Of a stretch of 64,000 nucleotides of DNA, positions 34,555 to 58,626 are shown piece by piece (position 1 is the first letter of the stretch; the number at the start of each line of letters is the position of its first letter). Below the pieces are notes generated by a model that was not told the origin of the DNA, made no database searches, and saw only the letters and a program-made list of their open reading frames with translations. Source of the stretch: Verrucomicrobiota bacterium (lineage in GTDB: Bacteria > Verrucomicrobiota > Kiritimatiellia > CAIQIC01 > JAGNIJ01); assembly GCA_036821485.1 (NCBI GenBank), contig DAISJM010000001.1, positions 72,320 through 136,319 of the forward strand. The letters run 5' to 3'. Position numbers and translations under genes: made by a program.

Positions 34555-35166
34555 CTAGCGGCGACGGCGGAGGGCGAGAAGCCCAAGGCCGATGATGCCG
34601 AGCAGCGAGGCCGTACCCGGTTCCGGGATCGCCACGACGTCGAACGTCACGTTGTCCAAGTAGAGAGCGCCGGCGGTGCCGCCGGAATTCTGGAAGTTGA
34701 TCTCGGCGCGTGCGCTGCTGGCGGCCGATGTCACGGTGAGCGACCACGAATTCCACGTATCGATGGTACCCGCGGACCAGGCGACCCGGTTGCTCGCGAG
34801 CTGCGCGCCACCGGCGTCCAGCCAGCGAACCTGGATATCCATGCTGCCGTCATATCCGCTGTCCCACAGCGAGTAAAACGACAGGTTGTAGGCCGTGTTG
34901 GCGGTAACGGTCGGCTTCTGTTCAATGCCATCGCCAGCTCCGAGCCAGTTCTTCATCACCAACGTCTGGCTGCCTTCCTGTGGAGTCTTCCACCCGGAAT
35001 TCACAGCCTCCACATCGCCCCAGCCGAACCAGTTCGTCGTTTCATTTTCCGGTGACCACGACGTCATGACGGGCGCCTCGAACCCGCCGTTAAGCAGCAG
35101 GCTGGCTTGAGTCGTCATTACGCCCGTCAACAGGACAACCATCACAACAAGTAACTTGCGCATCAT
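34555..35166 (-). CDS. PEP-CTERM sorting-domain protein with an N-terminal CBM-like (NGGFE) domain
   Basis: Signal peptide MMRKLLVVMVVLLTGVMTTQA. The C-terminus IPEPGTASLLGIIGLGLLALRRRR is the canonical PEP + TM + Arg cluster. RBS AAGGAG. Confidence 0.8.
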   Translation of the reverse strand: MMRKLLVVMVVLLTGVMTTQASLLLNGGFEAPVMTSWSPENETTNWFGWGDVEAVNSGWKTPQEGSQTLVMKNWLGAGDGIEQKPTVTANTAYNLSFYSLWDSGYDGSMDIQVRWLDAGGAQLASNRVAWSAGTIDTWNSWSLTVTSAASSARAEINFQNSGGTAGALYLDNVTFDVVAIPEPGTASLLGIIGLGLLALRRRR

Positions 35167-35287: not shown

Positions 35288-35812
35288 TCACGGGGTGACC
35301 GGAGCAAGTTCGACGCTGTCGATTCCAAGCGCGCCATCGGCACCGATGCCGGACGCTTCAAAGACAACCTGCAGGCGTGTGGTGCCCTCGGGTGCCTTGG
35401 CGGAGACCGACTCCTTGACCCACTTGCCCTCCTTGAGTTTGTCGAGCGAGGAAGATTCGCTGGCGAGGAGTTGATTGGCGTCATCGAAGAATTCGATCTT
35501 CATGAGGCGGGTGGAGGCGGTCCAATTGTTGTCGAAGTAGAAGAGGGCGGAGAGTTGATACTTGGTGCCCGGTATCGCGGGTGCGGACTGGATGATGCCG
35601 CCATTATCGCTTCCGCTCCACGAGCCGCGGAGATACGCGGCATACATGCCTTCCGGTGGATTGTTCCACGTATCGCGAACGAAACTGCCCCACGTGGTGC
35701 TCCAGTTATTCGCGTTGAGGTCGTCCTCAAAACCGGCATTACTCAGCAAATTCGCCCCGGCAACAACTCCTGTCGCGAGGAACATCAATACGGCGAGCCA
35801 TCTCATCTTCAT
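35288..35812 (-). CDS. Secreted CBM-like protein (paralog of the PEP-CTERM protein, but without the PEP-CTERM tail)
   Basis: Start trimmed to MKMRWLAVLMFLATGVVAGA after a GGAGG RBS. The NAGFED motif resembles the neighbour's NGGFEA. Confidence 0.6.
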   Translation of the reverse strand: MKMRWLAVLMFLATGVVAGANLLSNAGFEDDLNANNWSTTWGSFVRDTWNNPPEGMYAAYLRGSWSGSDNGGIIQSAPAIPGTKYQLSALFYFDNNWTASTRLMKIEFFDDANQLLASESSSLDKLKEGKWVKESVSAKAPEGTTRLQVVFEASGIGADGALGIDSVELAPVTP

Positions 35813-36035
35813 TACAGCCTCCATTACGCGTTTTACGGATCGGCCAACCCGACCACATGTTATCGGTAACATATTAATGTTTGCCGTGTGGCTGTCAACG
35901 CGAATTGAAGGGCGTTTTTGGCGGGCGTGGAGGGGGCTGTTTTGTTGGGTGGGAGCCCTATCGCAAGGCATTGGAATGAGGTAAGTTGCTCTTCAAGCAG
36001 GATGGGTCGATGGACCCGCATCAGAAGGTTACATC

Positions 36036-39000
36036 ATGAAATCATTCCTCCTCTCGCTGGGTGTGTTCTCCCTTGCGCTCTGTCTTCCCGCACGGGCTGC
36101 GAGCCAGCGATTCCTGGCCACTTCGGGTGATCGCCACAAATTGCGCGTGGACGATCCTGCCGTAGCGTCACAAATTCTCGCCGATGGTGGTCGGCTGATT
36201 GCCGACTACGGGTCTTTCCAGATGATGGAAGCGAATGCGTCGGCTGAGCAGACCTTCGCCGGGTCGGGCAGTGTAGAGAATCGCGATGAGGACAATCGCA
36301 TCCTGTTGAACGCGGGCGAAGTGGACACAACGACGGACGTCGCGAAGTTCACACGCCGGGCTCCGACGCAGTTCGCGGGACGTCGGCTTCATCTTGTCCA
36401 ATTCGCGGGTCCGGTGAAAGCAGAATGGGTGGACGAGTTGGAGAAGGCGGGACTCCAGATTGTCACCTACATTCCGAACAACGCCTACCTGGTGTATGGC
36501 GATGCGGCCGCGCTCGCGGCGGCGGGAGCCTTGGCCTCCAGCCGTCCCTTTGTGCAGTGGGAAGGTTCCTATTCCGCCGACGACAAGATTCAGCCGCGCG
36601 CGCGCAATCGTGACGCGGCGGGGCAGTACCGGATCCTCGGCACCGATCTCTTTGCCATCCAACTGGTGGACGATGACGTGGGCAATGCGGACACCCTGGC
36701 GCTCATCGATTCCATCAAGCTGGCGCCGTTGCGGCACGAGTCGAGGATGATGGGATACCGCAGCTTCGTTGTGCGTCTGCCACCGGACCAGGTGCCGGTC
36801 ATCGCCGAACAGCCGGATGTGGTGTCGATCAACACCTACGTTGAGCCGAAGAAATTCGACGAGCGGCAGGACCAGATTGTTGCCGGCAATTTGAACGCCA
36901 CGGGCAGCTACCCGACCAACGCGGGCTACCTTGCGTGGCTGTACTCGAAGGGCTTCACGCAGGACCAGTTCACCGCGTCGGGCTTCGTGGTGGATGTGAC
37001 CGACAGTGGTGTGGATAACGGCACGAACGCGCCCAATCACTTTGGCCTCTACGTGCTGGGCAACACCGGCCTCGCCAGCCGCGTGGTGTACAACCGGCTT
37101 GAAGGCACGGCGAACTCGGGGAGCACGATCCAGGGCTGCGACGGTCACGGCAATCTCAACTCGCACATCATCAGTGGCTACAACGATGGCAGTACGTTCC
37201 CGCATCTCGATTCCGCAGGCTACCGCTATGGACTTGGTGTTTGCCCGTTTGTGAAAGTCGGCTCGTCGGTCATCTTTGACCCGGACACCTTCACCGACCC
37301 GGACTACGAGGACCTCATCTCCCGAGCCTATCGCGATGGCGCGCGGATCAGCTCCGACAGTTGGGGCGCGGATACGGCCGGCGACTATGACATTGATGCG
37401 CAGCGGTACGATTATCTTGTGCGCGACGCGCAGCCAGCCAGCGCCGCGGTCGCGACGGCTGGCAACCAGGAAATGACGATTGTATTCGCCGCGGGCAATG
37501 CAGGGTCCGGCACCCAGACGGTCGGTTCGCCGGGCACCGCTAAGAATGTCATCACGGTTGGCGCGGCGGAGAATGTCCACTCACATGCGATCACCAACGG
37601 TGGCGCGAGTGCGATTGGCGATGATGGTTGCACGACGCCGGATTCCGAGGCGAACAACGCGAATGATATCGCCAGCTTTTCGAGCCGCGGTCCGTGTTCG
37701 GACCTGCGGAAGAAGCCGGAGATCGTGGCACCCGGCACACACATCACCGGTGGCGTGGCGCAGCAGACGCGCGGGACGACCAACGGCAATGATCTCGCCT
37801 GTTTCGACGGCACGGGCGTGTGCGGTTTGCCGGGTGGCGGGACGGTGGGCAGCAAGTTCAACTTCTTTCCGACGAACTCGGCCCAGCAATTCTGGACGAC
37901 GTCATCCGGCACGAGCCATTCCACTCCGGCCGTGGCGGGTGGTTGTGCGCTGATCCGCCAGTACTTCATCAACCTGGGCCTCAACGCGCCGAGCCCGGCG
38001 ATGGTGAAGGCCTACCTGATGAATGCCGCCCGCTACATGACGGGCACCTCGGCGAACGATACATTGTGGTCGAACAGCCAGGGCATGGGCGGGATGAATC
38101 TCGGCCTCGCGTTCGATGGTACGCCCCGCATTCTGCGCGACCAGCTCACCAACGATTTGTTTACCGCGACGGGCCAGTCGCGACAGTATGTCGGGACGAT
38201 CAGCGACACTGGTAAACCGTTCCGCGTGACGCTGTCCTGGACCGATGCGCCGGGGCCGACCTCGGGCAATGCCTACAAGAACAACCTGGACCTGACGATC
38301 ACGCTGGGTGGGCTGACGTATAAGGGTAACGTCTTCAGCGGCGCCTATTCCACCAACGGTGGTTCGGCGGATGTGCGAAACAATGCCGAGAGCGTCTTCC
38401 TTCGCGCGGGCCAGACCGGCGTCGTGGTGGTCACCGTTACGGCGGCGAACATCAATTCGGACGGCGTGCCGAACTACGGCACAGCGCTCGACCAGGATTT
38501 CGCGCTTGTCGTTTACAACGTCACCGAGGGCGCTTCCAATCTGCCGCCGGTGCTCGCGTCCATTGGGGACAAGTCGGTGGTGACGAACAACCTCCTGTCC
38601 TTCAGTGTCAGCGCCAGCGATCCGTTCGATGGAGATACGGTCTCGCTGTGGGCGACCGGTGTCCCGCCGTGGGCAACCTTCACGGGGGCAACGAATGCCG
38701 TGGGTGTGACGAATACGTTCTCCGGCACGCCGACGTCGACCGGCACCTGGGTCACGACATTCTACGCGGGCGACAAGGACGGCACGAACAGCGAAACGAT
38801 CACGATCAATGCGAAGGCCGGGGGAGCCCTGGATGTGGGTGGCTACAAGGTCAATCAGTTCAACAGTACCCAGACCTACACGATTCCCAGCGGAACCCTG
38901 GTTGAGCAGGGGGGATATCTCGTGCTGGCGCGCAATGTTTCCCAAGCGCAGTTTGAGGCATATTGGGGCGTGACGCTTGGCGCGAACGTGGTCTTTCTGA

Positions 39001-40409
39001 ATTCGAGCAACAAGGTTCCGCAGATCAACGGGTCCGAGCAGTATGAACTCCTGGATGCCTCATCCACCCTGATCGACGGCCGCACAGCCACGAACTTGGT
39101 CACCGTCAACATGGCGAATCAGCGCGTCAGCACAACGGCCGATGAGACACTGCTGACCAGTTGGAATACGGTGGCCATGGCGTCGGCAACTCCCGGCAGC
39201 GGTGCCGTGGCGGGGGGCGGGGCCGGGTTGGTCATCACTGAATTTTCGGATGCCGGCGCGTTTTCGAACGAGTTTGTCGAACTCTATAACGACAGCGGTG
39301 CCCCGGTGAACACACCGCCGGTGCTGAACGCCATCGGCAATCGGTCCGTGGTGGTGAGCAATACGCTGGAGTTTGCCGTGTCGGCGACGCCGACGGAGAG
39401 CGATGCCGTGACGTTGACGGTGAGCAATGCGCCGGCGGGCACCTACTTCAGCGCGGCGGGTGAGAGCGGCGTGTTCTACTGGACGAACGCGTCACCGGTC
39501 GGCGTCTACACGACCACGTTCTATGCGGCGGACATTGGAGGCGTGGACTTTGAGCAGATACTGATCAGCGTGGTGGCGGCGGGTGGTGGTGGCGGCGGCG
39601 GCACGGAGACGTTCAGCAACTCGACAGCGCCGGCGGCCACCTATGGCAGCGGCAGTTATGTCGGCGATGGCAGCATTCAGTGGACCTACAGTGGCGCGCG
39701 CACGCCGGAGTCGCTCTACTCGATCGATGGCACTTCGCTTGGCTTTGGCGATTCCACGCGCAACCCGCGGGAAGTCTACTCGTCGACGATTCCCGGCGGT
39801 GTCGGCAGCATCGCGATCAAGTACCTTAAGTATTTCACGGGCGCGGGGACGCGGAGCTTCGACGTCTACGTCAACGCGACGCTTGTGGGTTCGGTGTCGG
39901 ATGCGAACAACGCGACGGTGGCCACGCAGACGTTCAGCGCGATCAACATCAGCGGCGACGTGGTGATCAAGGTGGTCGGTACCGGCGGCAAGCAATTCGT
40001 CATCGATACGCTGAACTGGACCAGCTACGCGGGTGGCGGGGATGATTCCGATTTCGACAACATGCCGGACACGTGGGAGCAGGACAACTTCGGCACGTTG
40101 ACCAACACGGCAACCGGCGACTGGGATGGGGACGGTCTGGACAATCTTTCCGAGTATATTTCCGGCACGCAGCCGACCAACGATCAGTCGTATCTGCAGT
40201 TTGAGACCATCTCGATCCAGCCATCGGTGGGCATGCAGTTTGCGACCGTCACCGGCCGCACGTACTGGGTTGATTTCCGTACCAATCTGCTGTCGGGCGA
40301 CTGGACGAGCCTGATTTCTGGACTGATCGGCAGCAACGACGTGCGAACCGTCAGCGACACCAATGAGATTGAGCACCGGGCCTATCGCCTGGGTGTCCAA
40401 AGAAACTGA
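36036..40409 (+). CDS. Giant secreted subtilisin-like serine peptidase (S8) with He_PIG (Ig-like), lamin-tail and TSP3-like repeat domains and a conserved C-terminal beta-domain
   Basis: 1457 aa with signal peptide. The Asp/His/Ser triad sits in VVDVTDSGVDNG, HGNLNSHII and GTSHSTPAVAG. The lamin-tail (LTD) motif is LVITEF...EFVELYN. PPVL..IG(D/N)(K/R)SV He_PIG units occur twice. D-x-D Ca-binding repeats are DSDFDNMPDTWE. The C-terminus is FATVTGRTYWV...YRLGVQRN. Confidence 0.8.
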   Translation: MKSFLLSLGVFSLALCLPARAASQRFLATSGDRHKLRVDDPAVASQILADGGRLIADYGSFQMMEANASAEQTFAGSGSVENRDEDNRILLNAGEVDTTTDVAKFTRRAPTQFAGRRLHLVQFAGPVKAEWVDELEKAGLQIVTYIPNNAYLVYGDAAALAAAGALASSRPFVQWEGSYSADDKIQPRARNRDAAGQYRILGTDLFAIQLVDDDVGNADTLALIDSIKLAPLRHESRMMGYRSFVVRLPPDQVPVIAEQPDVVSINTYVEPKKFDERQDQIVAGNLNATGSYPTNAGYLAWLYSKGFTQDQFTASGFVVDVTDSGVDNGTNAPNHFGLYVLGNTGLASRVVYNRLEGTANSGSTIQGCDGHGNLNSHIISGYNDGSTFPHLDSAGYRYGLGVCPFVKVGSSVIFDPDTFTDPDYEDLISRAYRDGARISSDSWGADTAGDYDIDAQRYDYLVRDAQPASAAVATAGNQEMTIVFAAGNAGSGTQTVGSPGTAKNVITVGAAENVHSHAITNGGASAIGDDGCTTPDSEANNANDIASFSSRGPCSDLRKKPEIVAPGTHITGGVAQQTRGTTNGNDLACFDGTGVCGLPGGGTVGSKFNFFPTNSAQQFWTTSSGTSHSTPAVAGGCALIRQYFINLGLNAPSPAMVKAYLMNAARYMTGTSANDTLWSNSQGMGGMNLGLAFDGTPRILRDQLTNDLFTATGQSRQYVGTISDTGKPFRVTLSWTDAPGPTSGNAYKNNLDLTITLGGLTYKGNVFSGAYSTNGGSADVRNNAESVFLRAGQTGVVVVTVTAANINSDGVPNYGTALDQDFALVVYNVTEGASNLPPVLASIGDKSVVTNNLLSFSVSASDPFDGDTVSLWATGVPPWATFTGATNAVGVTNTFSGTPTSTGTWVTTFYAGDKDGTNSETITINAKAGGALDVGGYKVNQFNSTQTYTIPSGTLVEQGGYLVLARNVSQAQFEAYWGVTLGANVVFLNSSNKVPQINGSEQYELLDASSTLIDGRTATNLVTVNMANQRVSTTADETLLTSWNTVAMASATPGSGAVAGGGAGLVITEFSDAGAFSNEFVELYNDSGAPVNTPPVLNAIGNRSVVVSNTLEFAVSATPTESDAVTLTVSNAPAGTYFSAAGESGVFYWTNASPVGVYTTTFYAADIGGVDFEQILISVVAAGGGGGGGTETFSNSTAPAATYGSGSYVGDGSIQWTYSGARTPESLYSIDGTSLGFGDSTRNPREVYSSTIPGGVGSIAIKYLKYFTGAGTRSFDVYVNATLVGSVSDANNATVATQTFSAINISGDVVIKVVGTGGKQFVIDTLNWTSYAGGGDDSDFDNMPDTWEQDNFGTLTNTATGDWDGDGLDNLSEYISGTQPTNDQSYLQFETISIQPSVGMQFATVTGRTYWVDFRTNLLSGDWTSLISGLIGSNDVRTVSDTNEIEHRAYRLGVQRN

Positions 40410-40472
40410 CGTGTGGGGAGCCTCTATCCCTGCAGCCACCGCCCCGGTACGTTATTCCTCCGGGGAGGAAGG

Positions 40473-43400
40473 ATGCGCGGGCGCTACATGGTCTTGGGTT
40501 GTGTGCTGCTGGCTACCGGGCTTGTCGGGACGGCGCGGGCACAAGTCCGCACGTTGACCGGATCCTCTTTCTCCGTCGACGACGCGGGCATGGTGCGTAC
40601 GCTCGAAGTTGCGACCGATGAAATTGCCGTTCGCCGTTCCGGCGGAACCTGCACCGTCGAAAAGGTGGGGCCCTTCGCCGACGCAGAATCCATCCGTCGT
40701 TCCGCGCTGGCCCGCAAGCAGCTTGCCGACGAGGAGGTCGACCTGGTGCTGTACGAGCCCGGCGTGCCCCGGACGATCTACACGCGGCGCATCCTGACCC
40801 GTGGCGTGCTGGTTCGGTTGGACGCCGGCGCCAACCTTGCCGATGTCGAAGAGGAGTCTGGCGCGGTCGGCCGATGGGCGCCCGGCGGCGGAGGTTGGCT
40901 CATCTTCGATGCCGCGGACGCGGGGGGAGCGTTGATCTTGGCCGACACGCTGCGCGGGGTGAAGGGCGTCGCTTCCGCCGACCCTCTGCTGGCGCGGCAG
41001 CATGAGAAGCGCTACACACCGAACGACACGCTATTCAGTGATCAGTGGCACCTCGTCAACACCGGCCAGATCGGTGGCACGCCGGGCATCGACGTAAACG
41101 TCACGAATGTGTGGGACACGTATCGCGGCTCCGGTGTCTACATCGGCATCTGCGATGACGGCTTGCAGACATCGCACGAGGATCTTTCGGCCAACGTCAA
41201 CACCATCATCGACTGGGACTGGAACGGCGGCGACGGCAGTCCGGATCCCAACACCGCGCAGGACTTTCACGGCTCCGCGTGCGCGGGCGTGGCGGCAGGC
41301 CGCGGGAACAATGCGTTGGGCATCTGCGGCGGTGCGCCGCAGGCAACCCTCGTCGGCATGCGCTTGATTGCCGGCTATGTCGATGATGCCACCGAGGCTC
41401 AGGCGATGCTGCACAGCAACACGATTATCTGGATCAAGAGCAACAGTTGGGGGCCGGTCGACAACGGCTACACGCTTGCCGGGCCCGGTTCAGTGACCCG
41501 GGCCGCGCTTTCCAACGGGGTGCACAACGGGCGGGGTGGAAAGGGGACGATCTACCTGTGGGCGGGCGGCAATGGCCTGCAGTACAACGACAATGTCAAC
41601 TACGACGGCTACGCCAATTCGGTTTACACGATCGCCATCGCTGCGCTCGACAACACGGGGGGGCAGTCCTACTACAGCGAGCCCGGGGCGTGCCTGCTGG
41701 TCACCGCCCCGTCGAGTGGAAGCAACGGGGGTATCACGACTACGGATTTGATGGGAAGCTCCGGCTACAACAGTGGCGCCGGTTGGGATCTCGCCGATCC
41801 CAACTACACGGCCTACTTTGGCGGCACATCTTCCGCGACGCCGCTGGTTGCCGGGATCATGGCGTTGATCCTGCAGGCCAACACCAACCTCGGCTGGCGC
41901 GATGCCCAGGAGATCCTGATCCGTTGCGCCCGGCAGGTCAGTCCGTCGGACAGCGACTGGTCCACGAACAGCGCGGGTTTTCACTTCAACCACAAGTTCG
42001 GCGCCGGCCTGATTGATGCCCGTGCTGCGGTCACGCTGGCGGAGACATGGACCAATCTCGGGCCGCGGCTCTGGTACGAAAGCACGCACACCAATCTGGC
42101 GCAGGCCATACCGGACAACAATACAAACGGTACGACCGTGAGTTTTGTGATCAGCGCCACGAATATGAGGGTGGAGCACGTCGCAGCCACGGTGTACATC
42201 ACGCACCCCGCGCGCGGGAATCTCGCGATTACGCTCACCTCGCCGAGCGGCATGAAGAGCCGGCTGGCTGAAAAGCACAGCGATCTGTCGGCCGACTACC
42301 CGAACTGGACCTTCACCAGCGTGCGGCACTGGGGCGAGGAACTGCAGGGCGCGTGGACGTTGAATGTGGCGGATCGCACGGCTGGCGCCATCGGCACGCT
42401 GCAATCCGTTCGCCTGGATTTCTTCGGCACCGATACGGAGATTCCCTCCAACAGGCCGCCGGTGCTCAGCCGTCTCAGCGACCGGTCCGTTGCGGAAAGC
42501 AACCTGTTGGAGTTCGCCGTGTCCGCGTGGGATACGGTGGATGGCGACACGGTGACGTTATGGGCCACGAACGTGCCGGAGTGGGCCAGTTTTCCGGCCG
42601 TGACCAACGACATTGTCGTGACGAATCTGTTCTCCGGCACGCCCACCAATCCTGAAATGCGCACGGTGTATTTCTTTGCTTCTGACAAGGACGGCACCAG
42701 TACATCGGCTGTGAACATCACGGTCCGGCAGGCGGGCGACAGCGGTTGCGGATTCATCATCTCGGAGTACCTGGAGGGAACCAACGCCACGGCCAAGGCG
42801 CTTGAATTCTTCAATGGCACGGCCTCCGGCATCGATCTCAAATCCAGCAACTGTGTGGTACAGATCTATCTCAACGGGAGCAGCACACCCGGTTCGCCGA
42901 TCAGCCTCACGGGTACGGTGGCGGCGGGGGCCACCTATGTGGTTGCGCATTCCAGCGCCCCCACGGGCCTGACCGCGCGCGCCAACCAATTGGCGAGTCT
43001 GAGCGCGATCGGCGGAGACGATGCCGTGGTCGTAAGGTTTGGGGGGACGAATGGTCCGATCCTGGACCGTGTCGGACAGGTGGGCGTCGATCCGGGTGTT
43101 GAGTGGGGCTCGGGCTCGTACTCCACGTTGAACAACACGTTGCGGCGCAACCCGTCGGTGACGATGGGGGATACCAACGCGTACAGCGCCTTCGACCCCA
43201 CGCTGGAATGGCAGGGCTATGGACCGGACATCTTCGTCGGCTTCGGCGAACACATGATGAATTGCGAGGGCGCGGAGTCGCCACCGATTCTCAATCCGAT
43301 CGGCAACACAGCGACCGAGGTCGGCAGTCTGCTGGAGTTCACGGTCAGCGCGGAGTCGACCGGTGGCGATGTCGTGTCCCTGTCGGCCAGCAATCTGCCG

Positions 43401-44426
43401 CAGGGGGCTACCTTCACATCGAGCAATGAGACCGGCGTGTTCCGGTTCACCCCCACGCCTTCGCAAATGGGCACGCACTCGGTGGGCTTCTACGCATCGG
43501 ACAACGACGGTGTTGATACGGAGACGATCGAGATCAGCGTCTCGGCGCCGCAGGGCGGGGGATCATCCAACGTGTTGGTCTATTTCGATTTCGATGACGG
43601 TGCAAATTTCGAACCGGTTCCGGAATCCGTGGTGCAGCACCTGCAGGTCAGTGCGTTTGAGAGCCGTGATGGAAAATCCACCAATGCCATCGGCAATCCC
43701 GGCCGGGCCATTGCGGACAGCGGATGGACGGGCACGGTTCAGTACTTTGAGTTCACGGTTAATGTGGAGACCGGCTACACCATGGCCGCGGACGGGATGA
43801 CCTTCGACGACCTGCGGTCCTCGACGGGGCCGTTGGGTTGGCGTGTGCGGTACAGCGGAGATGGCTACGGCGCCGACCTCTCGCTGGCGGGCACGCACTC
43901 GTCTTACACGACGAACGTCCCGACCTTGTTCATGCCCGCGGTGACCGGCCAGGTGACGTTCCGGGTTTATGCGGACAACGCCAGCATGGCGGGCGCGACG
44001 TGGCGACTGGACAATGTGAAGCTGCGCGGAGCGGTGTATCTGACCTCTGAGGGGAATGACAGCGACGAAGACGGCATGTCGGACGATTGGGAAACGGCGC
44101 AGTTCGGATCGTTGACCAACGAAGCGGCAGGTGATTGGGACGAGGATGGTGTGGACAATCTGTCGGAGTACATCGCCGGGACCGAGCCGACGAACAACGG
44201 GTCGTACCTGCAGTTTGATGACATCCTGACGCCGGGCGGATTCCAGGTCCGGTTCGCGACGGTGACGGGCCGCACGTATTGGGTGGAATACGCCGAGGAC
44301 CTGCTATGGCCGGGCGCGTGGAGCAATCTGGCGACGGGCCTTTTGGGTAGTAATGATGTGCGTTCGGTGAGCGACACCAACGCCTCCGGCGGGCGAATTT
44401 ATCGCGTGGGCGTGCAGAGGAATTGA
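40473..44426 (+). CDS. Giant secreted kexin/furin-like subtilase (S8B) with P-domain, LTD, He_PIG units, TSP3-like repeats and the same C-terminal beta-domain
   Basis: Start at MRGRYMVLGCVLLATGLVGTARA after a GGGGAGGAAGG RBS. Catalytic motifs are GICDDG, HGSACAGVAAG and GGTSSATPLVAG. The P-domain reads YITHPARGNLAITLTSPSG. The C-terminal 120 aa are ~70% identical to the preceding protein. Confidence 0.8.
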   Translation: MRGRYMVLGCVLLATGLVGTARAQVRTLTGSSFSVDDAGMVRTLEVATDEIAVRRSGGTCTVEKVGPFADAESIRRSALARKQLADEEVDLVLYEPGVPRTIYTRRILTRGVLVRLDAGANLADVEEESGAVGRWAPGGGGWLIFDAADAGGALILADTLRGVKGVASADPLLARQHEKRYTPNDTLFSDQWHLVNTGQIGGTPGIDVNVTNVWDTYRGSGVYIGICDDGLQTSHEDLSANVNTIIDWDWNGGDGSPDPNTAQDFHGSACAGVAAGRGNNALGICGGAPQATLVGMRLIAGYVDDATEAQAMLHSNTIIWIKSNSWGPVDNGYTLAGPGSVTRAALSNGVHNGRGGKGTIYLWAGGNGLQYNDNVNYDGYANSVYTIAIAALDNTGGQSYYSEPGACLLVTAPSSGSNGGITTTDLMGSSGYNSGAGWDLADPNYTAYFGGTSSATPLVAGIMALILQANTNLGWRDAQEILIRCARQVSPSDSDWSTNSAGFHFNHKFGAGLIDARAAVTLAETWTNLGPRLWYESTHTNLAQAIPDNNTNGTTVSFVISATNMRVEHVAATVYITHPARGNLAITLTSPSGMKSRLAEKHSDLSADYPNWTFTSVRHWGEELQGAWTLNVADRTAGAIGTLQSVRLDFFGTDTEIPSNRPPVLSRLSDRSVAESNLLEFAVSAWDTVDGDTVTLWATNVPEWASFPAVTNDIVVTNLFSGTPTNPEMRTVYFFASDKDGTSTSAVNITVRQAGDSGCGFIISEYLEGTNATAKALEFFNGTASGIDLKSSNCVVQIYLNGSSTPGSPISLTGTVAAGATYVVAHSSAPTGLTARANQLASLSAIGGDDAVVVRFGGTNGPILDRVGQVGVDPGVEWGSGSYSTLNNTLRRNPSVTMGDTNAYSAFDPTLEWQGYGPDIFVGFGEHMMNCEGAESPPILNPIGNTATEVGSLLEFTVSAESTGGDVVSLSASNLPQGATFTSSNETGVFRFTPTPSQMGTHSVGFYASDNDGVDTETIEISVSAPQGGGSSNVLVYFDFDDGANFEPVPESVVQHLQVSAFESRDGKSTNAIGNPGRAIADSGWTGTVQYFEFTVNVETGYTMAADGMTFDDLRSSTGPLGWRVRYSGDGYGADLSLAGTHSSYTTNVPTLFMPAVTGQVTFRVYADNASMAGATWRLDNVKLRGAVYLTSEGNDSDEDGMSDDWETAQFGSLTNEAAGDWDEDGVDNLSEYIAGTEPTNNGSYLQFDDILTPGGFQVRFATVTGRTYWVEYAEDLLWPGAWSNLATGLLGSNDVRSVSDTNASGGRIYRVGVQRN

Positions 44427-44556: not shown

Positions 44557-44693
44557 GGCACCAGAGTTCCTCGCGGGGCTCGGAACACGGTGCCTGGCAG
44601 GCCAGATCCACACGTCAACGACCCCAAGAGGAACTCTGGGGCCTGCGCCGGTCACCGTGTTCGAGGCGAAGCCGAGAACTCGGGTGACCGGGC
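44551..44693 (+). other. Interleaved inverted-repeat cluster immediately 3' of tRNA-Glu (structured RNA or recombination/att-like site)
   Basis: Four arm pairs in the order A B C A' B' D C' D': GCCAGGCACC/GGTGCCTGGC, CAGAGTTCCTC/GAGGAACTCTG, GAACACGGTG/CACCGTGTTC and GCCGGTCACC/GGTGACCGG. Arm A overlaps the tRNA 3' end. Confidence 0.5.
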
Positions 44694-44722
44694 CATATCC
44701 TTCTGATAGCTTCTCGATCCTC

Positions 44723-44998
44723 ATGACAGGAACTCTTCCATACACCGTCTACATCCTCCTCAGCGAAAAGGACGGCAACTTCTACGTGGGTTTCACAACG
44801 GACTTGGCGAAGAGACTTTCAGATCACACCGCGGGCAGAGTTGAATCCACAGCACCTCGCCGGCCATTCAAGTTGGTTCACGCGGAGCAATATCTTTCCG
44901 AGGCAGATGCGATTCGAAGGGAGAAGTACCTCAAGACCACCAAGGGACGCCGTGCCCTCCGCCTCATGCTTCGCGATGCAGCCGGCAATTCTTCATGA
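44723..44998 (+). CDS. GIY-YIG nuclease-domain protein (small, stand-alone)
   Basis: ~91 aa from MTGTLPYTVYILLSEKDGNFYVGFTTDLAKRLSDH. The GIY...YVG and R..H motifs are present. Confidence 0.65.
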   Translation: MTGTLPYTVYILLSEKDGNFYVGFTTDLAKRLSDHTAGRVESTAPRRPFKLVHAEQYLSEADAIRREKYLKTTKGRRALRLMLRDAAGNSS

Positions 44999-53388: not shown

Positions 53389-56300
53389 CTATGGCGCCGT
53401 GACGCCGATGCGGTAGAACCGCTTCGGATCCGATCCCGGCGAATCCTCGTAACTCGTCGTCGGTCCGTTGGTCGCGCCGCGCACGGCGGCGCTGATCGGA
53501 TCGAAGGGCAGGGCAAGGTTCGTCGTTGCGTAGACATGGTAGAGCCGCCCCGACACGCTGCTCCACGTCAGCACCCACGCGTCGCCAGTGAGGGAGGGCG
53601 CCGCGCCGATCACTCTGAAGACCGAGGCGATTTGCTGGGGATTCGTACCGGCGACCAGCTCCTCCCGGTTGCTCATCTTGTCGCCGTCCGGATCGCCGGC
53701 TGAGCCGTTGTCGTCGTCCGCGATGACGGCGTCGGTGTTCATGTTCGTGTGGCCGACGATGCCGTCGTCCCACGGTGAGAGTTCGTTGGCGACTTCCCAG
53801 CCGTCCGGCAATCCGTCGCCGTCGGTGTCGGCCTGGCGCGGGTCGGTTTCCCACCACTGCTCGCCGGAATCGTGGAGATAGTTGTTGTTCAGGTCGCCTG
53901 TGATGCGCCCGTCGCGGTTGCCGTCCTCGAACCCGTCGGCCAATCCGTCGCCGTCCGTGTCGGTCGCCTCGAAGTCGGTCTCGTGGACATCCTGCGTCTC
54001 GTTGCGGTTCACGTCCTCCAGCGCGTCGCGGATCCCGTCGCTGTCCGTATCGGGGTTCAGATTCACAACTCGCGATGCCGACAGACTGTAGCCGGAGGTC
54101 GCGTAGAACACCTCGATCGTCCGCGTTCCCGTGCTTGAGTCGCTCCACGAGAAACGAATCTCGTTCATGTGGTCGCCGGCGACCTCGTCCTGGAAGAAAT
54201 AGCCCGCCGCGTTCTGCGTCACGCCGTTGACCTTGAAGGTGAAGGCGTTCGTCAGGGCCGGCAGCGTCTCGGTGAACTGGGCGACCACGGTGTAGGCCTC
54301 GTTGGTGAGGATGTCGATGCGCTGGCTGTCGTAGTTCGGCCACGCGATGCGCGCGCTCGCGTCAGCGCCCTGCTGGTTGAGCAGGATCTGGTAGCTGCGG
54401 CCGATGCTGTTGTTGTCGAGGTCGCGGCCCCAGGAATTCGCCGACACGCCGACATCGCCGCCGAGAACATCGATGCCGTCGTTGTTGCCGTCCGGCGTGT
54501 TGTACGTCGCGTCGCTGCCGGCGTCGTTCCCGCTGCTGCGGAACGAGGCGAGAGACAGCGTCACCTTTTGCGGATAGAACAAGTCGAGGTCGTAACGATT
54601 GATGCGGAACTCGATGCAATCGTTGTCGGCGCTGACCGACACCGCCGAATCATGCGCGTTGGGCTCGTACCATCCGCCGCCGTTGTAGAGCCGGATCTTC
54701 GACGTGCCGCCCGCCGTGTAGACCATGATCTGGCGCGTCGCGTACTGGTCGGCGTTCTCCAGCCCGATCGAGCCCGACGGCGTGGACGAGTCGCCGATCC
54801 ACGGGAAGCTGCTGCTTCCGACATGCGCATTCCACGCGATGCCGATCGCGGGCAGGGCGGCGTTGGTGATGTTCTGCATTCGGACGAGGAAGTAGGCATA
54901 GGTCTCGTCGCAGGTCACGCGGACCTCGGTGATGTCCTCGTCCTGCGATGCGCCCGCGAACGTCCGGTGGTCGTTCGCCTCGCCCTTGTAGATCCACTCG
55001 CCCTGGTCTACCGTCACCGCGTGGATGTCCGTCGGCGCCGTGCCGGCCCATTCGCCCGGCCAGCCGTCGATCTTGATGTCCGTGCGCTTGTCGAGGATGA
55101 CCAGGTCCCAGTACTCCAGCCGCGGCACCGTGAACTCCACGTAGTACCCGCCGCCATCGGTGCCTTCCGTGAAGCTCAGCTCCTGCGCCCGCCCGAGCCC
55201 GTCGTCGGGCGTGGCGACGTACACCTTCTGCACCTTCTTGTCGGCGTAGTACTTCATCGCGACGTTCGTCTGCGCGGGCGGGCGCGCGCTGCGGTTGCGC
55301 CAGACTTCGTCGACGCCGTTGAGGTTCACGAGGTTGAGCGTGTCGAACTCGTCGCGCCAGAGCTTCACGATCGTCCAGATGGAGCCGGACTGCCCGTTCT
55401 TCGAGAGCGTGTGGCTGGAGCTCGAGAGGTTCGCGGCGGCCGTTCCGTCGGACACGTTGCCGAGCGTGTTGAAGAACAGGAGGTTCTCGTACTTCACGAT
55501 GAAGTCGTAGTACTCGCGCATCGCGCGCTTGAGGGTGGGGCGCATCGGCGGCCAGTGCATGGGGAAGTAGTGGTTCGAGAGCATCTCCACGCCTTCGCCC
55601 ATCTCGATATGATATGCGCCGTTCGCGAACACGCAGGCGTCCATGAGCCGCACGGACGCCTCGCTGAGGTAGTTCGTGTAGTCGTTGAGGTTCATGTACG
55701 CGGCCAGCACGACCTGCTTGTTGCCGCGGTCCTTCGCGCGAAGGATCAGGTCGCGCACATCGTTGTAGCGGTCGTAGCCCCAGACCTCGGCGTAGTAGAC
55801 ATCGACGGCCGACGGGGCGATCTGGTCGAGGTAGCCCGCGTAGACGTCGTTGTGGACGACGCGGGCGTCCGGATGGGCGGTCCGGATCGCATCGCGGCAG
55901 CCCGCGATGAACGCGGGGAACGCGTCGCCTTCCCAGATCCCATCGTTGGAGTTGTACTTGTAGGTCCACGACCCGCCCAGGTTGTCGAGGTGGATGCCCT
56001 CGAAGCCCATCTTGAGGATCGCGTCCTTGTACTGGTTGTAGATCCACGCCTTCCAATCCGGGTGGGTGCAGTCCATGACCCAGATCGTGTGGTCGCCCAG
56101 CGGGTGCTGGCGGATATCGACCGGCGAGGTCGACCACGGCCTGTTGTAGGCGGCCCACGACGGGTGCAGCGGCGCCGAGCCGGAGCCACTGTCGCCGTAG
56201 AGGAGGTCGTAGGCCATCGTGAACATGTTCCGGCTCTTGGCGGCAGCGATCTTGTTGGAGACGGTCACGAGCGACTGCACCCGGCCGTCGATCTGAACGA

Positions 56301-58524
56301 ACACGTTTTGCAGGCTGCCGTCGTTGCCGTAGGGGAGGAGCCGGTCGTGCTCCCACATCCAGTCGTAGAACTGCACGGCGTTGATGTGATACTTGCTCAG
56401 CTCCTTGGCCTTCGCCGCCGAATCGCCGGACTGCTCGCCCTCGTAGAAGTCGGAGAAGAAGCCGTAGCGCGGGAACTGGGTCCAGTCGGTGCTGACGTCG
56501 ATGGCCGTCGACCGCCGGTCGTTGGTCGAGCCGCCGACGATGAAGTCGGCATCCACCGCGTAGCCCCGGAAGTCGTCGTTCCGCGTCGCCCACGACAGGT
56601 CCACCGCGAGCCCCGCGCCCGCGCCGACCGTCACGTTCGAGTCGATGACGGTGATCTCGCCGAACAGGTGCGAGATCCGCAGCCGCAAGGTTCCGCTCAC
56701 CGGCGAGCCCGACGAGTTGAACAGCTCCGCGGAGATCACCGCCGTGTCGCCGGGGTTGTACCGCGCCTTGTCGGTGTAGAGGTCGGTCAGGATCGAGTTC
56801 ACGCGGAGATAGAAATCCTCGCCCCCGTTGCTGTCCCAGATCGATGTGCCGTAGGAGTCGATCGCCTCGATGGCGAAACGCACCGTGTCGCCGGCGGAGA
56901 AGCTTCCGATGCTCGCGTGCCAGAGTGTCCGTCCGTTCGCGACCCCGTTCGAGGTCATGTTCGCCGTCAGCCAGCTCACGCCGTCCGTCGTGTACACCAC
57001 GCGCACATTCGTCGCCGCGCCGTCCGGCTCCGTCTCGGTGTTGATCCAGACATCCTCGCCCGCGTCGATGCTTCCGTAGTCCGGCCAATGGTAGGAGTTC
57101 TTGATCGCGGTCAGATGGCGCGGCGAGTTGACGATCGCCTTGTAGTTCGCGCCGCCTGCGGTATCCCAGACGACCTCAGGTCCGGTGAACGTCACCTCGA
57201 CGGCGAACTCGTTCGTTGTGCCGGCCGGGAACGTGCCGAGGTTGACGTGCCACAACGCGTTGTTGCCGTTCGTGCCGTTGGAGGTCATCGGCGTCGAAGT
57301 CCACGCCGCGCCGCCGTTCGTGCTCCAGACCACGCGCGCGGAGACCGAGTTGGAGGCCGGGCGCGATTCCGCGTTGATCCACAGGTCGTCCTCGGGATCG
57401 ATGTCGCCCAGGGCGGGGTAGGTGGTCGTGTTGCCGACCCAGCGCGACGTGGAGACGCTGTTCACGACGGCGAGGTAGTTGGTGCCGCCGGCGGTATCCC
57501 ACGTCTCGCCGCCGTAGCCGAAGTTCACCGCGGCCGCGTACCGGATCTGATCGCCCGCCGAGAACGGGCCGATGCCGCCGCGCCAGACGTCGTTCGAGCC
57601 GGAGCCCGCGTACCACGGCAGGTTTGCATCCTGCCAGGCGCCGCCGTTGACGCTGTACGCGACCTTGGCCGCGACCGCCTTCGTCTGCGGGCGCGACTCC
57701 GTGAAGACGTACAGCGTGTCGCCGGGGTCGATGTCGCCGTTCAGCGGGCTGTGGCGCGTGTTGCCGACCGACTGGCCGTCATGGACCTTGTTGACGATGA
57801 CGGGGTAGTTCGCGCCGTTGCGGGTGTCCCATTCCTTGTCGTTGGGGCCGAAGGTCACCTCCACGGCGTAGAAGTTCGTCGTGCCCGCCCAGAAGCTGCC
57901 GATCGACCCCTGCCACAGATCGTTCGCGCCCACGGTGCCGTTCCTGGCCATGTCGACGGAGGTCCAGTTGTAGCCGTCCGAGGTGTAGACGACGCGCGCG
58001 GCGGTTGCCGTGCCGATGGGGAAGGTCTCGATGGAGACCGTGACGTTCTCGCCCTGGTCGACTTGCTGGTCGGGCGGATCGTGATGCGTGTTCCCGAACC
58101 AGCGCGAGCCGGCCCCGCCGTTGACGTGCGCGAAGTAGTCCGCGCCGCCGTTGTTGTCCCACTGTGACCCGCCGCCGACGGCGAAGACTTCGACGGCGTA
58201 GCGGATGGTCGTACCTGCGGCGAACTTCCCGAGGTTGACGTGCCACCAATCGTGGACGCCGAGGAGTCCGTTGTAGCTCATGTTGGTCGACGTCCAGTTC
58301 ACGCCGCCGTCGGTGCTGTACACGCAATGGGCGCCCGACGCGCCGCCGGTGGGCGAGGACTCCACGTTGATCCAGACGTCGTCCGTCGCTTCGATCAGAC
58401 CCTCCTGCGGGGCCGCCGTGACGTGGCCGATCCAGTCGAGCGCGGCGAGGACGTTGAGCGATGCGGCGAGAAGCGTCGCGGCTGCAAAGGGCAAGACCCG
58501 TGTCGGAGTGATCATTCCGCACAT
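53389..58524 (-). CDS. Giant secreted glycoside hydrolase: ~10 tandem CBM25/26-like starch-binding-type modules, a GH66-like (dextranase/CITase-like) catalytic region, TSP3-like Ca repeats and a conserved C-terminal beta-domain
   Basis: ~1711 aa from MCGMITPTRVLPFAAATLLAASL (alternative ATG at 58515). Repeats of ~95 aa carry WINVES..VVYSTDGG..W..M..NG......W...IG.F.AG..I.YA.E......WDNNGG.NY. The catalytic region has VQFYDWMWEHDR and FEGIHLDNLG. D-rich DTDGDGLPDGWE repeats follow. The C-terminus is LYHVYATTNL...KRFYRIGVTAP. Confidence 0.75.
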   Translation of the reverse strand: MCGMITPTRVLPFAAATLLAASLNVLAALDWIGHVTAAPQEGLIEATDDVWINVESSPTGGASGAHCVYSTDGGVNWTSTNMSYNGLLGVHDWWHVNLGKFAAGTTIRYAVEVFAVGGGSQWDNNGGADYFAHVNGGAGSRWFGNTHHDPPDQQVDQGENVTVSIETFPIGTATAARVVYTSDGYNWTSVDMARNGTVGANDLWQGSIGSFWAGTTNFYAVEVTFGPNDKEWDTRNGANYPVIVNKVHDGQSVGNTRHSPLNGDIDPGDTLYVFTESRPQTKAVAAKVAYSVNGGAWQDANLPWYAGSGSNDVWRGGIGPFSAGDQIRYAAAVNFGYGGETWDTAGGTNYLAVVNSVSTSRWVGNTTTYPALGDIDPEDDLWINAESRPASNSVSARVVWSTNGGAAWTSTPMTSNGTNGNNALWHVNLGTFPAGTTNEFAVEVTFTGPEVVWDTAGGANYKAIVNSPRHLTAIKNSYHWPDYGSIDAGEDVWINTETEPDGAATNVRVVYTTDGVSWLTANMTSNGVANGRTLWHASIGSFSAGDTVRFAIEAIDSYGTSIWDSNGGEDFYLRVNSILTDLYTDKARYNPGDTAVISAELFNSSGSPVSGTLRLRISHLFGEITVIDSNVTVGAGAGLAVDLSWATRNDDFRGYAVDADFIVGGSTNDRRSTAIDVSTDWTQFPRYGFFSDFYEGEQSGDSAAKAKELSKYHINAVQFYDWMWEHDRLLPYGNDGSLQNVFVQIDGRVQSLVTVSNKIAAAKSRNMFTMAYDLLYGDSGSGSAPLHPSWAAYNRPWSTSPVDIRQHPLGDHTIWVMDCTHPDWKAWIYNQYKDAILKMGFEGIHLDNLGGSWTYKYNSNDGIWEGDAFPAFIAGCRDAIRTAHPDARVVHNDVYAGYLDQIAPSAVDVYYAEVWGYDRYNDVRDLILRAKDRGNKQVVLAAYMNLNDYTNYLSEASVRLMDACVFANGAYHIEMGEGVEMLSNHYFPMHWPPMRPTLKRAMREYYDFIVKYENLLFFNTLGNVSDGTAAANLSSSSHTLSKNGQSGSIWTIVKLWRDEFDTLNLVNLNGVDEVWRNRSARPPAQTNVAMKYYADKKVQKVYVATPDDGLGRAQELSFTEGTDGGGYYVEFTVPRLEYWDLVILDKRTDIKIDGWPGEWAGTAPTDIHAVTVDQGEWIYKGEANDHRTFAGASQDEDITEVRVTCDETYAYFLVRMQNITNAALPAIGIAWNAHVGSSSFPWIGDSSTPSGSIGLENADQYATRQIMVYTAGGTSKIRLYNGGGWYEPNAHDSAVSVSADNDCIEFRINRYDLDLFYPQKVTLSLASFRSSGNDAGSDATYNTPDGNNDGIDVLGGDVGVSANSWGRDLDNNSIGRSYQILLNQQGADASARIAWPNYDSQRIDILTNEAYTVVAQFTETLPALTNAFTFKVNGVTQNAAGYFFQDEVAGDHMNEIRFSWSDSSTGTRTIEVFYATSGYSLSASRVVNLNPDTDSDGIRDALEDVNRNETQDVHETDFEATDTDGDGLADGFEDGNRDGRITGDLNNNYLHDSGEQWWETDPRQADTDGDGLPDGWEVANELSPWDDGIVGHTNMNTDAVIADDDNGSAGDPDGDKMSNREELVAGTNPQQIASVFRVIGAAPSLTGDAWVLTWSSVSGRLYHVYATTNLALPFDPISAAVRGATNGPTTSYEDSPGSDPKRFYRIGVTAP

Positions 58525-58626
58525 CCAGCTAAAACGATTTAGATATACTATACAGATACCTGCCGCAAGCCCTTTTGTTAAGAAAGAATACCGCAGGGGC
58601 ACGCCGTGGCTCCACGAGGGCGGGAT

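Follow-up and report, generated by a model that had tools for sequence, protein, structure and literature searches.

Introduction

Dockerin type I is the anchoring module of cellulosomes, and FN3 domains of bacterial hydrolases commonly act as passive spacers or binding modules. T9SS is not known outside Bacteroidota and their relatives. Its CTD, a small C-terminal beta-sandwich carried by varied Sec-exported enzymes and adhesins of one supergroup, is described in PMC11285876 as a 3+4 seven-stranded Ig-like domain. Here we describe a C-terminal cassette that recurs in three genes of a 64-kb window (the whole stretch of DNA analysed), namely two adjacent subtilases, A and B, and a GH66 enzyme, C (Table 1). 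In the cassette, a pair of TSP3-type DxDxDG loop-helix motifs leads into a beta-domain of ~75 aa ending in RxYR[VLI]GV.

Each of the closest described systems resembles this cassette in part. Like dockerin type I, it presents paired DxDxDG calcium loop-helix motifs near the C-terminus of secreted hydrolases, the helices here being those of an AF2 model, but its loops are of the TSP3_bac type, a beta-sandwich follows them in cis and Pfam reports no dockerin match; we know of no cohesin partner for the cassette. As in the T9SS CTD, a small beta-sandwich closes varied Sec-exported proteins of one supergroup, although the domain described here resides in PVC bacteria, may occur in tandem copies, is modelled with six strands, and comes with neither a sequence match nor identified PorU/PorV-like machinery. 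The putative Ca-binding part appears to be built from the repeat of bacterial TSP3 (PF18884) proteins, for instance CglD and MtsD of Myxococcus, which do not, however, end in an FYRV beta-domain; the NCBIfam partial matches were to CglD (1.6e-18) and, weakly, to MtsD and Amuc_1099. The PEP-CTERM/exosortase sorting signal is likewise a C-terminal tag on exported proteins and occurs in the same organism, since the neighbouring gene at 34555-35166 (minus strand) ends in IPEP-TM-RRRR, a classic PEP-CTERM signal. By contrast, A, B and C have as their tail a folded domain of 75 aa; the three proteins end in YRLGVQRN, YRVGVQRN and YRIGVTAP, respectively, and lack a PEP motif, a transmembrane helix and an Arg cluster.

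Results and discussion

Three multi-domain enzymes

A and B are adjacent ORFs on the same strand, both longer than 1300 aa, as the earlier note on this DNA had stated (1457 aa for A; for B, 1337 aa if counted from the GTG at 40413 that opens the ORF, or 1317 aa with the ATG start at 40473 used by public gene calls). The product of A matches exactly the public protein HPF98513.1 (NCBI, Kiritimatiellia MAG). Judged by eye, the N-terminus of A (MKSFLLSLGVFSLALCLPARA/AS) appears to be a Sec signal peptide and that of B (MRGRYMVLGCVLLATGLVGTARA/QV) a signal peptide. Both are subtilases of family S8 (PF00082), with Peptidase_S8 scores of 162 and 128 bits, respectively, against a gathering score of 21.8, and both possess the Asp/His/Ser catalytic motifs (VTDSG, GHGN and SGTSHSTP in A; CDDG, HGSACAG and GGTSSATP in B). 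The P domain that directly follows the catalytic domain of B places this enzyme among the kexin/proprotein-convertase-like S8B subtilases, whereas Pfam detects no P domain in A. The proposed pairing of an S8A-like with a kexin-like protease is correct.

Table 1. Features of genes A, B and C and of their products, with window positions
Gene	Feature	Position	Strand	Evidence
A	S8 subtilase, predicted exported, 1457 aa	36036-40409	+	ORF, Pfam
A	Peptidase_S8 catalytic domain, aa 315-685	36978-38090	+	Pfam 2.1e-47
A	Ig-like repeat unit 1, aa 830-930	38523-38825	+	BLASTP vs B
A	Lamin-tail domain (LTD), aa 910-1017	38763-39086	+	Pfam 43 bits, gathering score 34.3
A	Ig-like unit 2, about aa 1086-1185	39291-39590	+	BLASTP vs B
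A	Two TSP3-type motifs, DDSDFDNMPDTWE and DWDGDGLDNLSEYISGTQP	40041-40175	+	Sequence
A	Terminal beta-domain, end RAYRLGVQRN-stop	40182-40406	+	HMM match; AF2
B	Kexin-like S8 subtilase, predicted exported, 1317 aa from ATG	40473-44426	+	ORF, Pfam, public gene calls
B	Peptidase_S8 catalytic domain	41127-42008	+	Pfam 4.8e-37
B	Proprotein-convertase P domain (P_proprotein, PF01483), aa 587-670	42171-42422	+	Pfam 85.1 bits
B	Ig-like unit	42435-42737	+	BLASTP/Pfam
B	LTD	42756-43079	+	Pfam 30.9 bits, under gathering cut-off
B	Big_9 Ig-like unit	43281-43535	+	Pfam
B	Two TSP3-type motifs, DSDEDGMSDDWE and DWDEDGVDNLSEYIAGTEP	44058-44189	+	Sequence; Pfam below cut-off
B	Terminal FN3-like beta-domain, end RIYRVGVQRN-stop	44196-44423	+	HMM match
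C	GH66 enzyme, predicted exported	53389-58524	-	ORF, Pfam; likely start ATG 58524
C	GH66 domain	55099-56775	-	Pfam 4e-132
C	TSP3_bac repeats, DTDGDGLPDGWE and DPDGDKMSNREELVAGTNP	53638-53829	-	Pfam TSP3_bac 42 bits, two stretches
C	Terminal FN3-like beta-domain, end KRFYRIGVTAP-stop	53392-53631	-	HMM 99 bits; BLASTP

A and B had been described as paralogues, but their catalytic domains are barely alignable (41% identity over 61 aa, E 0.003, BLASTP); hence, A and B are mosaics that share accessory modules rather than simple whole-gene paralogues. The Ig-like internal repeats are real, the unit at aa 830-930 of A being 52% identical to aa 675-775 and 45% identical to aa 952-1045 of B (BLASTP), but their assignment to He_PIG was not reproduced at E<=0.01 in either protein. 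He_PIG is precomputed for some homologues. A lamin tail had been claimed for both proteins; the score clears the gathering cut-off in A and falls under it in B. Over their last 124 aa, A and B share 61% identity in BLASTP (E 2e-41) and 63% in a MAFFT alignment, which is below the ~70% originally given for the last ~120 aa, and the DNA is 64% identical.

The ORF of gene C opens at 58602, and its N-terminus is signal-peptide-like, as in A and B. The product matches Glyco_hydro_66 over profile positions 1-545 of 546 (442 bits), which identifies it as a GH66 enzyme, and scores 293 bits against the NCBIfam endo-dextranase equivalog, under the 730 cut-off of that model. That this glycosidase ends with the same architecture as the two proteases was confirmed by BLASTP against A and B (E about 5e-5) and by the beta-domain HMM (99 bits), and a six-frame scan of the window found exactly three copies of the module. 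From their sequences, A, B and C read as Sec-exported multi-domain extracellular enzymes of a Kiritimatiellia bacterium, representing two S8 subfamilies and a GH66 dextran-active enzyme.

Anatomy and affinities of the tail

The TSP3 part of the cassette is unevenly captured by the Pfam model TSP3_bac (PF18884; gathering cut-off 25 bits), with C scoring above the cut-off at 42 bits, B under it at 16.2 bits (E 0.0095) and A without a match at E<=10, although the DxDxDG...E motifs can be read directly from the sequence of A, as can the motifs of B. We infer that this part binds Ca2+. In the AF2 model of the A module (pLDDT 95.6, pTM 0.83), two helices (residues 12-19 and 37-43), each placed after one DxDxDG loop, precede six strands, and six strands were likewise modelled for the A beta-domain alone (pLDDT 91.7). 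In both models the chain stops 1-3 residues past the strand aligned with fn3 strand F; the beta-domain is confidently predicted to be six-stranded and to end on the fn3 F strand, with the G strand absent.

Searches of Pfam-A and NCBIfam at E<=10 gave no relevant match to the terminal beta-domains of A, B and C, which upholds the view that the tail is not a described sorting domain, and in ten proteins with strong matches, likewise, no Pfam family covers the beta-domain. The family is uncatalogued, lying outside both Pfam and NCBIfam. The T9SS CTD models (Por_Secre_tail/TIGR04183) gave no Pfam or NCBIfam match at E<=10, and no T9SS CTD is found among the top 50 Foldseek matches; neither dockerin type I nor PPC (PF04151) is listed by Pfam at E<=10 for any of the three tails, and PEP-CTERM models likewise gave nothing at this threshold. 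The tail belongs to none of these four types.

The earlier note had held that a match to FN3 would speak against its interpretation, and such kinship was found in part: Pfam fn3 (PF00041, cut-off 25 bits) finds nothing in the three tails at E<=10, but profile and fold comparisons do reach FN3. The beta-domain profile matched the PDB Fn3-like protein 3mpc (E 3e-4) and aligned end-to-end with Pfam-confirmed fn3 repeats (10-23 bits per repeat), RFYRVGV of the beta-domain lining up with the fn3 F-strand YYYRVRA. The best Foldseek matches in the PDB were FN3 domains (probability 0.9, TMq about 0.5, E>0.03), a moderate fold similarity, with no PDB match at E<=1e-3. Compared with fn3 (PF00041; 3mpc; the Fn3 domain of CtXyl5A, 5g56), the tail domain is a beta-sandwich of similar size in which the conserved strand B Trp, the strand C G-R-x-Y and the strand F Y-R-V line up, but it is missed by the PF00041 model, is almost always the last domain, and is modelled with six strands ending on F instead of the seven (A,B,C,C',E,F,G) of the FN3-like superfamily. 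The beta-domain is a divergent, G-strand-less FN3 relative and not a fold without precedent.

Distribution and partners

Profile matches amounted to 58,161 cluster representatives at E<=1e-3 (exhaustive search, 1.84e9), an upper bound because long canonical fn3 arrays also score, and to 6,354 at E<=1e-10. Restriction of the module to A, B and C, which would have weakened the proposal made in the earlier note, is thus false; it is common to thousands of independent database proteins, almost always at the C-terminus, and the similarity between A, B and C is therefore far beyond chance. In about 125 of the 150 best matches (~83%), which as listed are skewed towards multi-copy proteins, the last copy lies <=5 residues from the end, and C-terminal copy number varies between 1 and about 12. 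In the 27 genome loci, each of the 29 domain matches finishes 0-2 codons ahead of the stop.

Among 120 homologues of B, 81 end with the domain and a further 27 end in an xF[LVIM]RLxV tail that is possibly related (hhalign probability 70%, E 4e-5), whereas about seven close homologues terminate right after the P domain, so that this enzyme family can do without the tail. No more than 55 of the 81 homologues, and 14 of 28 loci, have TSP3 motifs ahead of the terminal domain, and the complete cassette is therefore not obligatory. The upstream partners are unrelated to each other and include S8, GH66, RHS, LamG, DUF4082, F5/8C, MBG, NosD, chitobiase and beta-helix proteins, with S8 enzymes bearing the tail at loci L013, L024 and L040. 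The tails of A and B are mutually closest (61%), other database matches being <=42% identical over most of the query, near-identical A/B copies aside.

Named carriers and those confirmed in genome loci are almost exclusively from Verrucomicrobiota (an Akkermansia MAG among them), Kiritimatiellia and Lentisphaerae, the remaining loci being from a few further MAGs and one labelled Nitrospirales; in 20 loci from other phyla matched by the same DNA pattern the domain is absent. Lineage specificity, as suggested earlier, applies to the PVC group as a whole (Verrucomicrobiota, Kiritimatiellia, Lentisphaerae), but not to this organism. Neither a partner, sortase or secretion gene near A, B and C nor T9SS genes (PorU/PorV/Sov etc.) were found within the window, no recurrent associated machinery gene was found across 27 other loci, and our search for published experimental localisation of tail-bearing proteins returned none.

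Possible roles of the tail

We tentatively favour the possibility that the tail is a shared C-terminal handle, made of a truncated FN3 fold, for surface retention or export. Such a role fits the strict terminal position of the domain and the promiscuity of its partners, that is, evidence of a positional and combinatorial kind. The enzymes would first be exported by Sec, after which the cassette would fold, its TSP3 part probably being stabilised by Ca2+. The folded tail would then dock the enzyme to a presumed common envelope component, be it a glycan or a protein of the outer membrane or cell surface, and docking would keep these large hydrolases at the cell surface; the tail may also present them to an outer-membrane export route. 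By analogy, the variable copy number (1 to about 12) resembles that of known non-covalent anchoring repeats, such as SLH, LysM and CWB modules.

A serious rival, possible though rather doubtful in our estimation, is a plain accessory FN3-like module with TSP3 linkers that acts as a spacer, a stabiliser or a substrate or glycan binder and became C-terminal by domain shuffling, without any part in sorting. Kinship to fn3 by sequence profile and to FN3 folds, partial profile matches to CBM32 chitosan-binding modules (E 2.4e-5), tandem arrays as in other Ig/FN3 repeats, the machinery gene not found in the window or the 27 other loci and the missing tail of some homologues all argue for it. To our knowledge, however, ordinary FN3, PKD and Ig domains have no need to close the polypeptide, whereas the last copy of this domain lies 0-5 residues from the stop in ~83% of the top matches and in 29 of 29 locus matches, on unrelated enzymes. 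Furthermore, the F and R of the FYRV motif are nearly invariant and, by strand alternation, would face outwards, whereas variation (Y/L/V/I) occurs at the core positions.

It is improbable that the tail acts as a genuine signal for outer-membrane translocation in an undescribed PVC export pathway, a functional analogue of the T9SS CTD for a translocon to recognise, with possible cleavage afterwards. A small beta-sandwich with a conserved terminal motif at the extreme C-terminus of diverse Sec-dependent cargo, confined to one bacterial supergroup, does recall the T9SS CTD concept as set out in PMC4804311 and PMC11285876, but the T9SS CTD models and the top 50 fold matches are silent, up to about 12 copies per protein would be unusual for an export signal, and candidate machinery was not seen in the window or the 27 other loci. 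We give very little credence to a protease-specific pro-domain or intramolecular chaperone, PPC-like and removed on maturation; although two of the three window carriers are proteases, as are many carriers elsewhere, and 81 of 120 homologues of B bear the tail, it also occurs on GH66, RHS, LamG, chitobiase, MBG and beta-helix proteins, and PPC (PF04151) has no match at E<=10. A local remnant of tandem duplication between A and B without wider meaning, to which their adjacency and mutually closest tails (61%) might point, is refuted by gene C, 9 kb away, and by the thousands of proteins elsewhere that carry the domain, and the DNA identity of only 64% excludes recent conversion.

A further reading, which we regard as unlikely, is that the FYRV-terminal, G-strand-less FN3 domain serves as the cargo tag of an undescribed PVC-wide sorting system, in which an anchor protein recognises or completes the incomplete sandwich. 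The putatively exposed F-strand edge and the free C-terminus would be bound by a strand of an outer-membrane or surface anchor protein, a strand completion that may be likened to donor-strand complementation in pilins. If true, a large share of the extracellular enzymes of Verrucomicrobiota, Kiritimatiellia and Lentisphaerae would be exported or tethered in this way.

Two subtilases and a glycosidase end in a common module

The adjacent plus-strand genes A and B encode subtilases, as the earlier note had proposed for these two long ORFs and as Pfam confirmed. A (HPF98513.1 at NCBI, from a Kiritimatiellia MAG, annotated as 'S8 family serine peptidase') matched Peptidase_S8 at aa 315-685 (2e-47) together with a lamin-tail domain, and B matched Peptidase_S8, the proprotein-convertase P domain (85 bits), a Big_9 Ig-like domain and, below threshold, LTD. 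Both have the Asp/His/Ser catalytic motifs and belong to S8, B, with its P domain, being kexin-like, whereas the minus-strand gene C encodes a member of GH66. The N-termini of all three proteins, judged by eye, look like signal peptides. The public gene calls on identical contigs (GCA_964523715.1, JGI 3300009783) begin B at the ATG at 40473, yielding a protein of 1317 aa (MRGRYMVLG...).

A and B had been described as paralogues. However, their catalytic cores barely align (BLASTP, 41% identity over 61 aa only, E 0.003), whereas identity reaches 61% over the final 124 residues (E 2e-41), somewhat below the ~70% first estimated for the last ~120 aa. Accordingly, we consider A and B to be mosaics with common accessory modules rather than whole-gene paralogues; it is the sharing of these modules and of the tail that stands. 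The Ig-like units are indeed true repeats common to both proteins (identities of 52% and 45%, BLASTP), although the He_PIG family to which they had been assigned was not reported by Pfam. Since the DNA encoding the terminal stretch is only 64% identical in the two genes, we rejected recent gene conversion. In both genes the Ig-like units, the LTD and the tail follow in the same order despite the different S8 cores, which suggests that the protease domains took no part in the exchange or co-duplication of the accessory block.

The tail comprises two TSP3-type DxDxDG loop-helix motifs followed by a C-terminal beta-domain of ~75 aa with an RxYR[VLI]GV-type end, referred to here as the FYRV domain. 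The GH66 enzyme proved to end in the same module, as the earlier note had stated (BLASTP against A and B, E about 5e-5; 99 bits with a small beta-domain HMM), and a six-frame scan of the 64-kb window recovered exactly three copies of the beta-domain, in A, B and C.

Features of the window considered here
Feature	Position	Strand	Basis or remark
Small CBM_4_9 protein with a textbook PEP-CTERM end, VVAIPEPGTASLLGIIGLGLLALRRRR	34555-35166	-	
Paralogous small CBM_4_9 protein, ends ...ELAPVTP, without PEP-CTERM signal	35288-35971	-	
Gene A, 1457 aa	36036-40409	+	ORF call
Ig-like units and LTD of A	38523-39590	+	
Gene B, 1337 aa from GTG	40413-44426	+	ORF call
Ig-like units and LTD of B	42435-43535	+	
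Small GIY-YIG domain protein	44657-44998	+	public call, 91 aa
Gene C, GH66 enzyme, likely start 58524	53389-58602	-	Pfam GH66, 4e-132
N-terminal repeats of the GH66 protein	56776-58440	-	by eye
LacI-type regulator and two ABC sugar-permease genes	59447-63998	-	

The terminal domain is a divergent FN3

The final ~75 residues of A, B and C matched nothing in Pfam-A or NCBIfam, even at E<=10, in agreement with the earlier view that the module could not be placed as a described sorting domain. The DxDxDG repeats upstream of the beta-domain were the sole part of the tail to register (TSP3_bac; 42 bits in C, 16 bits in B and none in A). Weak NCBIfam matches on the tails to Amuc_1099, MtsD, FimA and an ice-binding protein (E 0.008-1) lay on the TSP3 part or represented noise, and the best phmmer match of the module against PDB sequences, the Ca-binding region of C2 toxin, was too weak to retain (E 0.09). 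Membership tests for Pfam fn3 (no match), T9SS CTD, PEP-CTERM, dockerin and PPC all failed.

AlphaFold2 modelled the 124-residue module (63-sequence alignment; pLDDT 95.6, pTM 0.83) with a helix after each of the two DxDxDG loops, followed by six beta-strands, which were also present when the beta-domain was modelled alone (pLDDT 91.7). A Foldseek search of PDB yielded no match to the tail model at E<=1e-3; the top matches were FN3 domains (Tencon, fibronectin FN6, contactins; probability about 0.9, TMq about 0.5), and T9SS CTD was absent from the top 50. A profile built from 54 beta-domains matched the PDB 'Fn3-like protein' 3mpc (E 3e-4) and the Fn3 region of 5g56 (E 0.013). The profile also produced partial matches to CBM32 chitosan-binding modules, at profile positions 12-63 only, which we read as a common W...Y...S-D...W sandwich motif; CBM32 membership was rejected.

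Repeats that Pfam assigns to fn3 (E about 1e-100 per protein) could be aligned with the full length of the same profile, RFYRVGV of the tail falling on the fn3 F-strand motif YYYRVRA. Given this alignment, which we regard as decisive, the tail is an FN3-type domain, though a divergent one, whose chain stops at strand F without a G strand, for which the period of the tandem arrays, about 75 residues, leaves no room. The earlier note had named an FN3 match as one outcome that would tell against its reading, and this came about in part: there is no match to Pfam fn3, but the whole-length alignment is there, and a looser FN3-superfamily test is passed on kinship, without the seventh strand. The tail represents a family of FN3-derived, almost invariably C-terminal domains that lack the G strand and belong to the PVC group (here Verrucomicrobiota, Kiritimatiellia and Lentisphaerae), not a categorically new fold, and neither Pfam-A (2025) and NCBIfam 20.0 nor the literature that could be searched gave an account of it.

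Abundance, position and fusion partners

Far from occurring only in these three proteins, as the earlier note had allowed it might, the domain was detected in 58,161 of 1.84 billion cluster representatives at E<=1e-3 and in 6,354 at E<=1e-10 when these were searched exhaustively with HMMER. The larger count sets a ceiling on the size of the family, as long canonical fn3 arrays pass too. In about 125 of the best 150 matches, the last copy finishes in [RK]F[YF]R[VLI] and lies <=5 residues from the C-terminus; among the others, the majority of those checked are internal fn3 arrays. The number of C-terminal copies varies from 1 to about 12, and in none of ten strongly matching proteins was the domain covered by a Pfam family. 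When the single tail of A was used in a word-indexed search, one near-identical fragment was retrieved, and an alignment of the three tails matched 235 proteins, about 70 of the best 120 having a beta-domain that ends 0-8 residues from the C-terminus (e.g. RFYRVGVQ, FYRLxVxP). With this 122-aa query all listed matches were <=256 aa, A's own 1457-aa cluster not being among them despite its presence in the collection; such a search may thus miss proteins far longer than its query, and architectures surveyed with it from short queries are fragment-biased.

Scanning one genome per species with a degenerate DNA pattern for RFYRVGVQ, which samples one sub-motif only, returned 47 loci, 27 of them with a genuine domain, and all 29 domain matches at these loci stop 0-2 codons before the stop codon. 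The 27 loci derive from Verrucomicrobiota (including an Akkermansia MAG and Limisphaerales), Kiritimatiellia, Lentisphaerae, a few other MAGs and one 'Nitrospirales' contig, and the 20 pattern loci from Bacteroidota, Firmicutes, Proteobacteria, Archaea and other phyla, which served as an internal control, contained no domain. The protein of the 'Nitrospirales' contig (L028, CAZOMH010000343.1) closely resembles, along its length, a protein on a Kiritimatiellae contig (L003), which suggests that the label is a binning error. A 'Chloroflexi' S8 protein (P0362), the tail of which is like that of the Verrucomicrobiota protein P0346, may likewise be mis-binned.

The tail is fused to several independent S8 proteases and to proprotein-convertase-like, GH66, chitobiase-domain, RHS, LamG, DUF4082, F5/8C, MBG and beta-helix proteins. 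Among the best 120 homologues of B, the FYRV domain closes 81, about seven end directly after the P domain, and about 27 (e.g. P0369, P0374, P0376, P0378 and P0389) carry in its place a second type of tail, with an xF[LVIM]RLxV / [RK]F[LVIM]RL[RKE]V end 0-3 residues from the C-terminus, which can be related to the FYRV domain only tentatively (hhalign probability 70%, E 4e-5). No swapping of tags, that is, a PEP-CTERM or T9SS tail on the same enzyme core, was seen in these 120 proteins. The cassette of Ca-repeat and beta-domain is frequent, not obligatory, a TSP3-like motif preceding the terminal domain in 55 of the 81 B homologues and at 14 of 28 genome loci.

Genomic surroundings

Housekeeping genes (carbamoyltransferase, amino-acid kinase, PLP enzyme, ADH, radical SAM, Na/H exchanger) surround A and B, together with a fucosidase and two small CBM_4_9 proteins; there are no secretion or sortase genes in this neighbourhood. 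The CBM_4_9 paralogues sit divergently upstream of A, and the PEP-CTERM end of one of them implies that the organism already has another, exosortase-type, C-terminal sorting route beside the FN3-like tail. The GIY-YIG protein is encoded between B and a convergent alcohol dehydrogenase gene.

By eye, the GH66 protein contains in its first ~550 aa about six tandem ~95-aa repeats with the pattern W.G...P..G.ID.GD.LWI..ES.P...A.VV.S.DGG..W....M...G..G.ND.W...LG.F.AGT...YAVEV, for which Pfam gave matches below threshold only (Lmo2446-like_N, GlgE N/S, CBM_56) and which is probably an uncatalogued glucan-binding repeat. The regulator and permease genes lie directly upstream of C on the same strand, and, as read from the translations, the arrangement resembles a locus for the use of dextran or isomalto-oligosaccharides.

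Possible role of the tail

Strict terminal position over unrelated proteins is the hallmark of sorting or anchoring tags, T9SS CTD, PEP-CTERM and dockerin among them. On this positional and combinatorial evidence we tentatively propose that it may be a surface-retention or docking handle. The TSP3 loops would bind Ca2+, and the cassette would act as a shared handle docking exported enzymes onto a common envelope component, which might either hold them at the surface or offer them for outer-membrane export. In function the tail would then come closest to a cargo tag at the C-terminus or to an anchoring repeat; its Ca loops before a truncated FN3 are dockerin-like, even if the Pfam dockerin model does not recognize them. 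From strand alternation, the near-invariant F and R of FYRV should face away from the sandwich core, the positions of which vary, and this hints at a predicted recognition surface.

Alternatively, and only a little less probably, the tail could be a passive accessory FN3-like domain. FN3 domains are often passive modules, some homologues lack the tail, and no partner was found in the window or at the 27 external tail-bearing loci, where an all-against-all BLAST of ORFs revealed no recurrent neighbour, all of which counts against a handle; yet ordinary FN3, PKD or Ig spacers do not show such a strict terminal position. We consider it unlikely that the tail is a dedicated, cleavable export signal, which terminal position might also bring to mind, since the variable copy number favours avidity-based non-covalent anchoring over a translocation signal. 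The original observation is upheld, and its interpretation as a possible secretion or retention signal in part only, the functional role being proposed from position and partners.

In guts, digesters, soils and oceans, complex glycans and proteins are broken down to a large extent by Verrucomicrobiota, Kiritimatiellia and Lentisphaerae, and little is understood of the way in which these bacteria bring very large hydrolases across the outer membrane or keep them on the cell surface. If the tail is merely a passive FN3 variant, it would still represent a missing domain model annotating tens of thousands of 'hypothetical' C-termini. If functional, it would be a candidate display tag. One invariably C-terminal tail common to thousands of exported proteins and absent from Pfam and NCBIfam offers a testable entry to the display or export of large hydrolases in the PVC group. 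It could help to predict which proteins are secreted or exposed at the surface, and phylogenetic profiling or pull-down with it as bait could lead to the component with which it interacts.
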